Assembly: GCA_028711655.1 (NCBI GenBank)
Contig: JAQTRU010000001.1
Location: forward strand, 6,648 to 70,647
DNA length: 64,000 nt
Source of the DNA: Patescibacteria group bacterium
GTDB lineage: Bacteria; Patescibacteriota; Patescibacteriia; Patescibacteriales; JAQTRU01
Direction of reading: 5' to 3'
Shown here: positions 26,471-28,746 of the stretch, piece by piece
Layout of the letters: each line of letters begins with the position of its first letter
How positions within the stretch are numbered: position 1 is the stretch's first letter
Translations under genes and position numbers: made by a program
Notes under the pieces: generated by a model
Told to the model about the DNA's origin: nothing
What the model saw: only the letters and a program-made list of their open reading frames with translations
Database searches by the model: none

Positions 26471-26499
26471 TTGCTAAATAAAAAAGCTGTTGATATTAT
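26471..26499 (+). promoter_or_regulatory. Candidate rRNA promoter P1
   Basis: TTGCTA-17 nt-TATTAT. Confidence 0.45.
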
Positions 26500-26513
26500 G
26501 TTTATAAAGGCCC

Positions 26514-26542
26514 TTGACATTAAATAAATAATAGTTTACTAT
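26514..26542 (+). promoter_or_regulatory. Candidate rRNA promoter P2
   Basis: TTGACA-17 nt-TACTAT. Confidence 0.5.
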
Positions 26543-26706
26543 TAAAGATACGAAAAATACAAAAGAATAGCAGGCAGGAGGCAAGGAAACAGTAATATTA
26601 ATTTAAATTTAATATTCCTGTTTTTTTGCTGCTTGCCCGGTAATAATTCCGGGGAGAAGGAATGCCCTTTAACAATTTATTAAATTTTGGTGAACAAAAA
26701 AATTTT

Positions 26707-26722
26707 TGGCGCTAGCAGGCGC
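26707..26722 (+). promoter_or_regulatory. 16S leader half of the long-range processing stem (pairs with trailer 28678-28690)
   Basis: Leader GCTAGCAGGCGCC is exactly complementary to trailer GGCGCCTGCTAGC; RNase III-type stem enclosing the 16S. Confidence 0.6.
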
Positions 26723-26989
26723 CGATTTAATCCTGTCGTCCTCGGACGACGGGGCAAGGATAACGAAATTTACCCGGGGCAACCCGGGTCTCAAATAGAA
26801 GTTAAAAGCTTCAACAGGGAAGAAAACCTGTTTAAAAACTTTCTCTTGGATAGTAAACCAAGTAAAAAACTTTAAGAGAGTTTTCAGCCAGAGGCTGATC
26901 CGCCTTTGGCGGAGATCCTGGCCTGCCCGCAAGGGCAGGTTAAAACTGGAGTACTGAAAACTTTCCTTGGATAGTAAACCAAGTAAAAA

Positions 26990-28603
26990 ACTTTAAGAGA
27001 GTTTGATCCTGGCTCAGGATGAACGCTGGCGGCGTGTCTAAGGCATGCAAGTCGAATGCCAATGCTTCGCATTGGCGCGCGGACCCGAGCGGACTAATGC
27101 GGACTAATGCGGAAATTTTTTTCCGTATAAGTCCGTATAAGTCCGTATAAGTCCGCGTGCCGCTGTGGAGCAGCGGCATGGCAAACGGGAGAGTAACACA
27201 TTGGTAATCTACCTCGAGGACGAGGATAACCCTGCGAAAGCGGGAATAATACTCGATGATAGTGAGGGGGCAAAAGCCATTCTCACTTAAAACTCCGGTG
27301 CCTCGAGAGGAACCTATGGCCTATCAGCTTGTTGGTGGGGTAATGGCCCACCAAGGCGACGACGGGTAGCGGGTGTGAGAGCATGACCCGTCTCACTGGG
27401 ACTGAGACACTGCCCAGACTCCTACGGGAGGCTGCAGTCAAGAATCTTCCTCAATGGCCGAAAGGCTGAAGGAGCGACGCCGCGTGCATGAAGAAGCCCT
27501 TCGGGGTGTAAAGTGCTTTTAACTGGGACGAATCAATGACGGTACCAGTTGAATAAGGGGCTGCTAACCTCGTGCCAGCAGCAGCGGTAATACGAGGGCC
27601 CCGAGCGTTATCCGGATTTATTGGGCGTAAAGGGTCCGTAGGCGGCCCGTCGCATCTTTCGTTAAATCCATCGGCTCAACCGATGGCCTGCGAAAGAGAT
27701 GAGCGGGCTAGAGACCGGAAGAGGCAAACGGAATTGCTGGTGTAGGGGTTAAATCCGTTAATATCAGCAAGAACGCCAAATGCGAAAGCAGTTTGCTAAG
27801 ACGGTTCTGACGCTAAGGGACGAAAGCGTGGGTAGCGAATGGGATTAGATACCCCAGTAGTCCACGCCGTAAACGATGGATGCTAAGCCTTGAAAGTATC
27901 GACCCTTTCAGTGCTGTTAATTTAAGGTAACCCGTTAAGCATCCCGCCTGGGGAGTACGAGCGCAAGCTTAAAACTCAAAGGAATAGACGGGGACCCGCA
28001 CAAGCGGTGGAGCATGTGGTTTAATTCGACGATAAGCGAGGAACCTCACCAAGGTTTGACATCAGGCTGCATTTTCTGGAAACAGAAAAGCCTTCGAGGG
28101 TGCCTGACAGATGCTGCATGGTTGTCGTCAGCTCGTGTCGTGAGATGTACCGTTAAGTCGGAAAACGAGCGCAACCCTTATCCTGTGTTTTATATGTCTC
28201 AGGAGACTGCCCGCTTTAAGTGGGAGGAAGGTGGGATGACGTCAAATCAGCATGGTTCTTACACCTTGGGCAACACACGTGCTACAATGGGAATTACAAA
28301 GGGAAGCCAAACCGTAAGGTGGAGCAAATCCCTTAAAAGTTCTCTCAGTTCGGATTGAGGTCTGCAACTCGACCTCATGAAGCCGGAATCGCTAGTAATC
28401 GTGGATCAGCTATGCCACGGTGAATACGTTCTCGGGTCTTGTACTCACCGCCCGTCAAGTCAAGGGAGTCGGCAATACCCGAAGACCCCCGCCTAAATTT
28501 TCGAACTTCGAAAATTTTGGCGGGGGGCTAAGGTAAGGCTGGTAACAAGGACTAAGTCGTAACAAGGCATCCGTAGCGGAAGCTGTGGATGGATCACCTC
28601 CTT
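26990..28603 (+). rRNA. rrs: 16S ribosomal RNA (~1.6 kb; expanded V1), not followed by 23S in this window
   Basis: agagtttgatcctggctcag ... gtgccagcagcagcggtaatac ... ggattagataccc ... aagtcgtaacaaggcatccgtagcggaagctgtggatggatcacctccttt. Confidence 0.95.
27090..27160 (+). repeat. Word-repeat expansion of 16S helix 6 (V1)
   Basis: gcggactaatgcggactaatgcgg aaattttttt ccgtataagtccgtataagtccgtataagtccgcg, the same agtccgc word family used in intergenic arrays. Confidence 0.7.
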
Positions 28604-28718
28604 TCTAGGGAGATATTCGGTGAAAAAAACGAATGTGTCGACCTACTTAAATTTTTATAAAATCTAGGTGGGAAATTGGCGCCTGCTAGCTTTGAAATTT
28701 TGATCATCAAATAAAAAA

Positions 28719-28746
28719 ATACGCGAGTTGATCGCGTATTTTTTGT
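28719..28746 (+). terminator. Terminator downstream of 16S
   Basis: atacgcgagttgatcgcgtattttttg. Confidence 0.65.

Follow-up and report, generated by a model that had tools for sequence, protein, structure and literature searches.

We analysed a 64,000-nt stretch of contig JAQTRU010000001.1 from the Patescibacteria assembly GCA_028711655.1, referred to below as the window, from its DNA sequence. The subject of this analysis is the 16S rRNA gene of the window, which is 1614 nt long and is a member of Rfam family RF00177, as it matches the full-length covariance model (model positions 1-1533) with 1429.5 bits against a gathering score of 50. The gene is preceded by a long leader, is convergent with the tryptophan-tRNA ligase gene trpS, and carries additional hairpin-forming sequence in its leader, in the V1 region (helix 6) and at the tip of helix 44. 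We consider it probable that the locus is an ordinary Candidate Phyla Radiation (CPR) 16S unit with several optional hairpin-forming inserts that were recently acquired.

By its TrpS homologues and by a scan of a genome collection, the organism belongs to the Patescibacteria (CPR) and lies close to genomes labelled as Falkow-, Komeili-, Magasanik- and Uhrbacteria. Loci L004 (GCA_041645555.1) and L005, fetched via TrpS homologues, share the gene order of the window, as do L150-L153, which come from one Joint Genome Institute (JGI) population (the samples of L150 and L151 are JGI 3300028193 and 3300028169). About 120 further 16S loci were gathered with a signature 20-mer. The 16S bodies of L004, L150, L151 and L005 are 98.4%, 98.0%, 98.0% and 93.6% identical to that of the window; L122, a 1.27-Mb contig, is 89.5% identical and L032 about the same. 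L001 is the closest relative at the T-box/trpS site (TrpS 91%). Two of the TrpS-based relatives, L145 and L149, have no usable V1 and stand outside the V1 comparisons.

The gene stands alone. An Rfam scan of the whole window gave no large subunit or 5S rRNA match, and the other RNA genes found were five tRNAs only, which agrees with the claim of an earlier reading of this DNA from its letters (the sequence-only reading) that no 23S lies within 35 kb. The same reading had placed trpS about 200 nt downstream on the opposite strand; the stop codon of this open reading frame (ORF; 28809-29804, minus strand), which probably starts at the ATG at 29795, indeed lies 205 nt past the 16S 3' end. No case of a 23S gene following the 16S was seen among the relatives examined with Rfam, which have tRNA genes or trpS there instead, and unlinked rRNA genes have been published for Patescibacteria (bioRxiv 10.1101/705046). 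The stand-alone 16S was therefore correctly observed and is the expected norm in this group. In being a single-copy 16S apart from any 23S, the window resembles the unlinked CPR rRNA genes of the literature (bioRxiv 10.1101/705046; PMC9297842).

The length of the gene is less usual, since 16S genes at related loci mostly measure 1475-1497 nt. Tsurumaki et al. 2022 (PMC9297842), with reference to Brown et al. 2015, put the usual CPR 16S length at about 1.47 kb and the share of CPR 16S genes with insertions of 100 nt or more at 42%. Published accounts of CPR insertions emphasize introns, many of them with homing endonucleases, whereas the window carries short inserts that lack an ORF and fall into no intron family. 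No intron family reached the gathering score in an Rfam scan of the window, and the V1 module contains no ORF. Introns of the published kind do appear to occur nearby in the group. A group II D1-D4 match lies near the 16S gene in L001-L003, where an insertion sits at a place similar to the one at about position 1395 in L150. In L150 (10360-13684, minus strand), and also in L151-L153, an insertion of about 830 nt with an ORF lies near this position; judged by eye only, the ORF resembles a LAGLIDADG homing endonuclease. The window has neither of these insertions.

Two promoter-like sites were claimed upstream of the gene, at 26471 and 26514, and both were found. A motif scan alone is weak evidence for such sites (11 found, 5.3 expected in shuffles); the extended -10 element of the upstream site (TGaTATAAT/TGaTATTAT) and both hexamers of the downstream site are kept in L004, L005 and L150 within otherwise diverged DNA. 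The leader then presents a hairpin at the boxB position, whose core (AAACAGTAATATTAAT...TTAATATTCCTGTTTTTTT) is kept in the same three relatives, and a boxA-like motif that agrees at 12 of 13 positions with the E. coli rrn boxA, TGCTCTTTAACAA. The core of this motif reads CTTTAACAAT in the window and L004, ACTTTAACAAT in L150 and ATTAACAAT in L005. A boxA-like motif downstream of a conserved hairpin, both kept among relatives, is the arrangement expected of an rrn antitermination leader, and this is the function we predict for it. Further downstream, the homolog of a conserved leader hairpin (26772-26789) carries a 112-nt insert in its apical loop in L150, L152 and L153, and none in L151, L004 or the window.

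The exact complementarity between leader and trailer noted by the sequence-only reading was confirmed, with the leader core one base further on (26711-26723) than first placed (26710-26722). The 13-nt perfect core belongs to a 29-nt inverted repeat and is kept in L004, L005 and L150; the duplex has an energy of -52.2 kcal/mol, compared with -25.4 +/- 4.0 for shuffled leaders. Leader/trailer helices of differing sequence were found at 46 related loci, usually at -100 to -150 and +65 to +110; the leader arm of the window lies at -289 because of the inserts in its leader. A long duplex around the 16S that is kept despite changing sequence is characteristic of an RNase III processing helix, and the predicted helix is presumably such a site. 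Beyond it lies a perfect 13-bp hairpin flanked by A- and T-runs, which is also present in L004 and L005, in L004 with a compensatory T/A to C/G change. The predicted functions are those of a normal single-copy CPR 16S unit that is monocistronic and has promoters, a processing helix and a terminator of its own. Transcription would start from two promoters and run through a leader with boxB-like and boxA-like signals into a 16S bracketed by the leader/trailer helix, and an intrinsic terminator shared with the convergent trpS would end the unit.

The leader of this unit holds one of the inserts. The sequence-only reading had described a segment of about 48 nt duplicated at the mature 5' end, so that the 16S terminus occurs twice. 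The repeat is real: its two copies (26836-26883 and 26957-27004) lie 121 nt apart and are 92% identical over a gapless alignment, and the leader is about 157 nt longer than those of L004 and L150, which have a single copy. The view of it as a private tandem duplication did not stand, as the repeat is part of a recurrent insert. From 5' to 3' the arrangement is the native leader tail with GAGAGTTT, a 30-nt double hairpin, GATCCTGGC, a further hairpin, AACTGG, CTGAAAAC, the leader tail again and the true 16S. CTGAAAAC can pair with GTTTTCAG at the junction. The intact 16S 5' end stays on the gene body, and the spare copy is the one that is split. The insert consists of a spare 16S 5' end split by the double hairpin, some 50 nt of filler and a repeat of the leader tail of the host.

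The same design was found at the same position in the window, in L058 and L094 (both from the Genome Taxonomy Database, GTDB) and in seven metagenome contigs representing five leader sequences (L138/L140, L139/L141, L142, L143 and L144). Among these carriers, identity over the first 540 nt of the 16S falls to 69-83% with the window and, in the pairs tested, to about 79-80% with one another. The insert measures 97-104 nt in the other carriers and 121 nt in the window. Each carrier repeats its own, lineage-specific leader tail, of about 13-19 nt in the others and 48 nt in the window. All 24 of the 24 stem positions of the double hairpin are invariant across eight lineages, while both triloops vary. 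The insert is absent from sisters with 98.4% identical 16S, namely L067 (compared with L094) and L004 (compared with the window). Such presence and absence between close relatives at an otherwise identical site is what a mobile element would show. By this comparison, the leader "duplication" is a copy of an insert of about 100 nt that contains the 30-nt double hairpin and recurs in at least eight distant lineages, and that seems not to have been described previously. A permissive Rfam search of the leader (26540-27010) assigned the double hairpin to no family, its only hits being miRNA-like and at chance level, blastn of the double hairpin against GenBank phages gave no match, and a full-text literature search with the hairpin sequence found unrelated primers only. 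CUGAU...GAUC in the leader insert looks hammerhead-like, but inspection showed the core motifs of a hammerhead to be missing and this reading was rejected. A 5'-end duplication in L113, made up of a 21-nt exact repeat and about 25 further nt of 16S, borders on a run of N; it was taken for a probable scaffolding artefact and discounted.

The double hairpin is not confined to 16S leaders. A covariance model, R1, built from 22 copies gave the window leader copy 63 bits and a second window copy, at 18386-18415, 55.2 bits, and found about 16 places with at least 30 bits in about 1 Mb of CPR loci. The exact pattern has 11 matches in IMG/VR contigs, mostly in gaps of about 45-200 nt between co-oriented ORFs, near the next start and in either orientation. 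Across copies the first hairpin covaries (TCAGCC/GGCTGA, CCAGCC/GGCTGG, CCCGCC/GGCGGG) and the second is nearly constant; dispersed copies with a conserved fold in different contexts are again what a mobile element would leave. The second window copy lies inside an O-antigen-ligase-like ORF (17692-19065, minus strand; Pfam Wzy_C, E = 4.7e-21), whose reading frame is interrupted neither by the hairpin nor by its GAAAATT/TTGAAAA arrays at 18343-18385 and 18843-18904; a 25-nt flank occurs a second time at a distance of 451 nt. This gives the impression of repeat DNA that is tolerated by a membrane-protein gene. The 16S leader of L143 has two double hairpins: about 100 nt upstream of the conserved one, and in the opposite orientation, is a diverged copy (10918-10957, minus strand, 31.3 bits).

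Other copies are tied to tRNA genes. In L125, L045 and L035 the hairpin sits at the T-loop position (GGTTC^RAWTCC) of a spare 3' tRNA fragment directly downstream of an intact tRNA-Pro, tRNA-Gly and tRNA-Met, respectively. L068 has two double hairpins, each at the D-loop position of a spare 5' fragment of tRNA-Pro, and each joined to a repeat of the initial 17 nt of the neighboring tRNA-Pro gene. These two bracket an 85-aa GIY-YIG gene (L068:1087-1344, minus strand; Pfam E = 1.8e-15), the only protein gene found associated with the element; nothing comparable was found at the other loci. In every 16S and tRNA case the interrupted copy is the outer one, and the gene itself is intact. The 16S junction, GAGTTT^GATCCT, resembles the T-loop motif, and the junctions share approximately GTTY^RAW. 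A related arrangement was seen at the other end of the 16S gene in L004 (11600-11900, minus strand), where the last 28 nt of the 16S (TGGATGGATCACCTCCTTTCTAGGGAGA) are repeated in the trailer. Here a different GC-rich hairpin, of 37 nt, interrupts the outer 3'-end copy between CACC and CCTCC in the anti-Shine-Dalgarno region, a mirror image of the 5'-end duplication in the window.

Genetic elements are known to integrate at the T-loop or anticodon loop of tRNA genes and to regenerate the gene end. The double-hairpin loci resemble such integrations in that the tRNA or 16S end is intact on one side and partly duplicated on the other, and their repeat blocks of 13-48 nt are within the range of the identity blocks of attachment (att) sites. 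They differ in that only 40-350 nt separate the copies, no integrase is present, and the hairpin stands at the junction inside the spare copy. By their form, the double hairpins recall GC-rich elements of organelles: the double-hairpin elements of Allomyces mitochondrial DNA (mtDNA; Paquin et al. 2000, cited in PMC7218506), the GC clusters of yeast mitochondria (PMC4478555) and the repetitive hairpin-forming elements of sponge mtDNA (PMC2800124). Like these, they consist of two adjacent short GC-rich hairpins in AT-rich DNA, are optional among close relatives, and occur in intergenic DNA, around rRNA genes and inside a protein reading frame. The host is different, a CPR bacterium with further copies on phage-like contigs, and the likeness is one of form, with no sequence homology expected. 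A strict tie to spare ends of stable-RNA genes and to a T-loop-like junction has, to our knowledge, not been reported for the organelle elements.

The V1 region holds another insert. Measured from AAGTCGA to GGCAAACGGG, V1 is 124 nt long in the window, compared with 15-24 nt in about 95 of about 112 related genes. L004, L005 and L150 have a short 24-nt form, ATGCC-TTGTAGCAATACAA-GGCAT; an expansion of V1 is therefore not universal in the lineage, as a comparison with 98.0-98.4% identical 16S genes makes plain. The relatives at this distance, L004 and L150, lack both the V1 expansion and the leader duplication. Within the module, the word repeats reported by the sequence-only reading were confirmed and form two arms, GCGGACTAAT x2.5 at 27089-27113 and TCCGTATAAG x3.4 at 27122-27155, both 100% matching. 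The arms pair with one A-A mismatch and one G-U pair per 10-nt unit, and the minimum-energy fold of the window sequence taken alone is a single rod (-88.8 kcal/mol, z = -12.5).

Modules of the same plan occur in L122 (133 nt) and L032 (134 nt), with a TTC-loop hairpin, a long rod of 10-11-nt word repeats (ATCCGCGT / ACGCRGAAT) and a GGA-loop hairpin. The three modules align with 79% mean column identity. A three-hairpin model pairs 100% of cells over the three sequences, with compensatory changes at 6 of 14 pairs, and the single long rod given by the minimum-energy fold and RNAalifold was rejected as a worse fit to them (91.7% paired, 2 compensatory and 4 broken pairs). In this model the predicted module is a four-way junction formed by the helix 6 base, two short hairpins and a rod of about 40 bp, for which the covariation is indicative and not conclusive.

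Expanded V1 regions are optional even within one population. The 16S bodies of L150 and L151 are 100% identical over 1269 nt, yet their V1 regions measure 24 and 108 nt, the latter a hairpin. The outer arms of the L151 V1 match those of L144 at 31/31 and 33/34 nt, and the L144 16S is only about 81% identical to that of the window over its first 540 nt. L138/L140 and L139/L141 have identical leaders and different V1 inserts. Rods also make up the other V1 expansions of the group, and in several of them (L119, L138, L141) both arms carry word repeats. In L061 the V1 is a perfect 52-nt palindrome (ATGCGCCATCATGTAGAGACGTAAAATTTTACGTCTCTACATGATGGCGCAT), the sequence of which suggests inverted duplication at the DNA level rather than selection on RNA pairing alone.

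The intervening sequences (IVS) of bacterial rRNA are removed by RNase III and are classically found in 23S helices 25 and 45, as in Salmonella and Leptospira, with a few cases in 16S. The V1 module resembles an IVS in being an extended stem-loop at the tip of a conserved helix (124 nt in place of the 24-nt V1 of close relatives), sporadic among strains (L150/L151) and with modules of its type in distant hosts (L144, L122/L032). It differs in its site, 16S helix 6, and in its structure, a putative four-way junction with a rod of tandem 10-nt units. Judged by these comparisons, V1 modules appear to behave as optional, IVS-like units that are shared horizontally. Because such modules are optional between strains and shared by distant lineages, the V1 module of the window was most likely acquired as a unit and not grown from nothing in place; it replaces the apical loop of helix 6.

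Compensatory slippage, a concept from eukaryotic rRNA expansion segments, was reportedly described by Hancock and Dover. The tandem motifs on one V1 arm (27089-27113) are matched by complementary ones on the other (27122-27155), both with a period of 10, as such slippage would produce, and the word family of V1 also varies in copy number between relatives at the 30349 array. The window differs from slippage segments in that its word is also dispersed outside rRNA and the module appears to have been acquired whole. As the 10-nt family of the rod is dispersed and its copy number differs between close relatives, rod length probably changes by slippage, which would act on both arms.

This word family was the second element of the claim that one repeat system decorates promoters and also acts inside a structural RNA. 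The pattern TCCGYNNNAGTCCG, allowing at most one mismatch, has 19 matches in the window, where 0.81 +/- 0.85 are expected; they cluster in both V1 arms and at 30349, 52185, 56884 and 61669. V1 and the sites at 56887 and 61692 have an exact 13-mer, GTATAAGTCCGCG, in common. All arrays begin with TTCCGY and continue as (NNNAGTCCGY)n, and two of them meet head to head at the V1 loop. From the shared 13-mer and the common start of every array, the family reads as a dispersed repeat and not a set of independent microsatellites. The recurrence of the family thus held, and its role as promoter decoration did not: the arrays lie after a T-box terminator, after a stop codon and before start codons. The rod is indeed made of the family, but V1 was not simply expanded in place by a genome-wide repeat process, since the entire module, with a rod built on a related word, is common to L122 and L032.

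The four arrays outside rRNA, which occur in both orientations relative to the neighboring gene, probably lie in transcribed stretches, judging from neighboring ORFs and hairpins. The array at the T-box site has 5 units in L001 and 3.5 in the window, and none in L005 or L150; no array of the family was found in L150, L151, L145 or L004. The T-box leader itself (30429-30628, minus strand; 41.7 bits, E = 5.8e-8), which falls short of the Rfam gathering score, precedes a 67-aa ORF (30088-30291) and trpS, and its terminator is kept in L001, L005 and L150. The operon order appears to be T-box, small ORF(s), trpS.

Word arrays in general are frequent in this genome, with a density of 0.74 per kb in the window, similar values in L122 and L032, and 0.09-0.31 per kb in L004 and L150. 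An idea that V1 expansion tracks the genome-wide array density was weakly supported (p = 0.059, Spearman rho ~0) and was not kept. Inverted pairs of word arrays that would fold into long hairpins lie at 8902-8995, 36887-36959, 37747-37836 and 49828-49931, and more such pairs lie between genes at 50788-50900, 59336-59390, 62066-62150 and 7197-7286. Their words include AAGTTATA, TACGAAT, CACAAAT, TACAAAT, GACAATT and ATCGCAT; some words (AAGTTAAA, ATTCGTA) recur at several loci of the window and in L122. The tRNA-Gly gene (59513-59587, minus strand) is flanked by 7/14-nt arrays of AAAATCTGAAATCT and AATTTTCAATTTTA at 59467-59506 and 59595-59626. A literature search on tandem repeats in Patescibacteria found nothing relevant.

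Helix 44 has an insert as well. Measured from anchor to anchor it has 96 nt in the window, compared with 66-73 nt in 61 other loci. The extension is common to L150-L153, with a compensatory change, and missing from L004 and L001; as a palindrome, it would be of the same kind as the other inserts. Wherever the optional pieces could be resolved they sit at apical loops: those of helix 6, helix 44 and the L150 leader hairpin, and the loop positions of spare gene-end copies. Coordinates of all features are collected in Table 1.

Table 1. Features of the 16S locus and of related repeats elsewhere in the window (positions of the window).
Feature	Coordinates	Strand	Basis
Double hairpin, second window copy, inside Wzy_C-like ORF, flanked by GAAAATT arrays	18386..18415	.	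Pattern search, R1
Promoter-like site P1, TTGCTA-17-TATTAT, TG before -10 hexamer	26471..26499	+	Promoter-motif scan
Promoter-like site P2, TTGACA-17-TACTAT	26514..26542	+	Promoter-motif scan
Leader hairpin followed by T-run, boxB position; AT-rich core ~26590-26625	26568..26642	+	Inverted repeat
boxA-like motif TGCCCTTTAACAA	26663..26675	+	Sequence read, conserved core
Putative processing helix, leader arm (perfect core 26711-26723)	26681..26728	+	Inverted repeat, duplex energy
Window-only hairpin insert in leader, stem ~26732-26753	26729..26759	+	Absent from L004, L005, L150 alignments
Conserved leader hairpin ACCCGGGGCAACCCGGGT	26772..26789	+	Alignment with relatives
Copy A: leader tail and first 14 nt of 16S, spare (pseudo) 5' end continuing the native leader	26836..26883	+	Repeat search
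Double hairpin TCAGCC-AGA-GGCTGA TCCGCC-TTT-GGCGGA, between T14 and G15 of spare 5' end	26884..26913	+	Comparison, model R1
Insert remainder: GATCCTGGC (16S positions 15-23), hairpin 26922-26939, AACTGG, CTGAAAAC	26914..26956	+	Inverted repeat, comparison
Copy B: leader tail and true 16S 5' end	26957..27004	+	Rfam, repeat search
16S rRNA gene	26991..28604	+	RF00177, full model
V1/helix 6 module replacing 14-nt loop of close relatives	27059..27176	+	Alignment, folding
V1 hairpin 1, loop TTC	27059-27075	+	Three-hairpin model
V1 rod	27076-27159	+	Three-hairpin model
V1 rod arms, head to head around A/T loop	27089..27155	+	Tandem-repeat search
V1 hairpin 3, loop GGA	27160-27176	+	Three-hairpin model
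Palindromic extension of helix 44 tip, ~25 nt longer than L004	28483..28529	+	Inverted repeat, alignment
Putative processing helix, trailer arm (core 28678-28690)	28673..28701	+	Inverted repeat, duplex energy
Terminator-like hairpin, bidirectional, between 16S and convergent trpS	28714..28744	.	Inverted repeat
trpS (tryptophan-tRNA ligase), convergent with 16S	28809..29795	-	Homolog names, PF00579
10-nt-family array between T-box terminator and small ORF before trpS	30349..30382	.	Repeat and pattern search
10-nt-family array right after ORF ending 52181, before terminator-like hairpin	52185..52218	.	Repeat and pattern search
Short 10-nt-family array directly upstream of start codon	56884..56915	.	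Pattern and 13-mer search
10-nt-family array, 4.5 units, directly upstream of start codon	61669..61713	.	Repeat and pattern search

The inserts of an otherwise ordinary unit would arise by DNA-level mobility or inverted duplication and persist mainly where the RNA tolerates them, in apical loops or in spare copies of gene ends, and their behavior would be largely neutral or selfish. A more specific form of this interpretation, which we put forward only tentatively, is that the leader duplication was left behind by small, site-specific mobile elements of CPR bacteria and their phages, which would form a family not yet described. The 30-nt double hairpin would enter T-loop-like loops (GTTY^RAW) of stable-RNA genes (between 16S positions 14 and 15, and in tRNA T- and D-loops) and be fixed only where a spare gene end is created or available, with the V1 modules and 10-nt arrays as further products of the same targeting of hairpin loops. 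Several points weigh against our account of the locus. No transposase or recombinase was linked to any insert, the GIY-YIG ORF being the sole associated gene at one locus. The invariance of the stems in very divergent hosts and the constant length of about 100 nt fit a selected RNA or a protein-binding function equally well, and in L144 the two leader-tail copies have diverged while both keep a hairpin by compensatory change, which hints at constraint at the RNA level. The V1 covariation comes from three sequences only, and the association of V1 expansion with array density is suggestive only (0.62 compared with 0.32 arrays per kb, one-sided p = 0.059, 100 loci).

An assembly artefact is one conceivable account of the leader duplication and repeats, given that repeats and rRNA genes are often misassembled and that the L113 duplication beside a run of N looks artefactual. 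We regard it as extremely improbable here, as the two leader copies are not identical (92%), the leader architecture occurs in 10 independent assemblies, and a homologous V1 module is found on a 1.27-Mb contig (L122) and in L032. A functional role in pre-rRNA handling is a serious rival, because the stems are invariant and the insert length is fixed, even if we rate it as somewhat unlikely. The leader insert would then be a module that stands in for the 16S 5' end as a decoy or placeholder, offers another processing site, or is bound by a protein or polymerase, and it would be old, vertically inherited and often lost by recombination between its flanking direct repeats. Consistent with this are stems that stay invariant and loops that vary in eight lineages, a length held at 97-104 nt, filler features that are kept (the hairpin after GATCCTGGC, AACTGG, and YTGAAAAY complementary to GTTTTCAG) and the compensated hairpins of L144; the direct repeats would allow easy and precise loss, which could explain the patchy distribution. 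Yet the insert is missing from 98.4% identical 16S sisters and from about 97% of related genes (3 of 112 carry it, with L113 discounted), and an ancient element would need concerted evolution of both copies to account for each lineage duplicating its own leader tail. The same double hairpin also turns up in tRNA fragments, within a protein-coding ORF and, in both orientations, between phage-like genes, places where no rRNA-specific function could apply.

For the V1 module, the alternatives concern its fate in RNA and the role of its words. The module may be a true IVS, in which RNase III cuts the rod without religation to leave a mature 16S of about 70 nt plus about 1.4 kb. Within a fold of about 60 bp, its rod forms an almost unbroken duplex of more than 25 bp. 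The module occupies the apical loop of a conserved helix and is distributed patchily between strains, and the same transcript is predicted to use RNase III at the leader/trailer helix. For most rRNA insertions of CPR bacteria, removal from the transcripts was predicted, according to PMC9297842, citing Brown et al. 2015. Against cleavage, hairpins 1 and 3 covary like a folded junction that is retained, and the A-A mismatches and G-U pairs that recur every 10 nt might hinder the enzyme. Helix 6 is a solvent-exposed spur of the 30S subunit and could simply tolerate a long extension. We place excision a little below an even chance, and whether the rod is retained in the ribosome or cut out is roughly a matter of even odds. 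That the 10-nt arrays are sites for a regulatory DNA- or RNA-binding protein, in line with the promoter decoration of the sequence-only reading, with the V1 rod displaying such sites on the ribosome or titrating the factor, seems to us improbable. Phasing by 10 nt, which is one helical turn, the uniform array start of TTCCGY followed by (NNNAGTCCGY)n, and the position of the four non-rRNA arrays near gene ends in probably transcribed stretches would suit such a role. Orientations are mixed, however, and so are positions (ahead of start codons, behind a stop codon and behind a T-box terminator); copy number varies among close relatives, and arrays are gone where the same genes are kept. Many further word arrays of the genome have unrelated units and often form inverted pairs, which argues for a mutational or selfish process rather than one regulon.

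Most of this locus is textbook, and unlinked rRNA genes and 16S insertions were already known in CPR bacteria; the inserts are the new part. V1 inserts that are optional among identical 16S bodies and shared across distant lineages bear on the design of amplicons and primers, on 16S taxonomy and on the quality control of CPR metagenome-assembled genomes, and natural pairs with and without the V1 insert could show whether such inserts stay in the ribosome. We consider the double-hairpin pattern the most interesting lead of the locus. If functional, it would be an unrecognized pre-rRNA or pre-tRNA signal. If mobile, it would be a new small element with an unusual target; on the tentative site-specific reading above, CPR rRNA operons would then be hot spots of a new insertion biology beyond the known introns.

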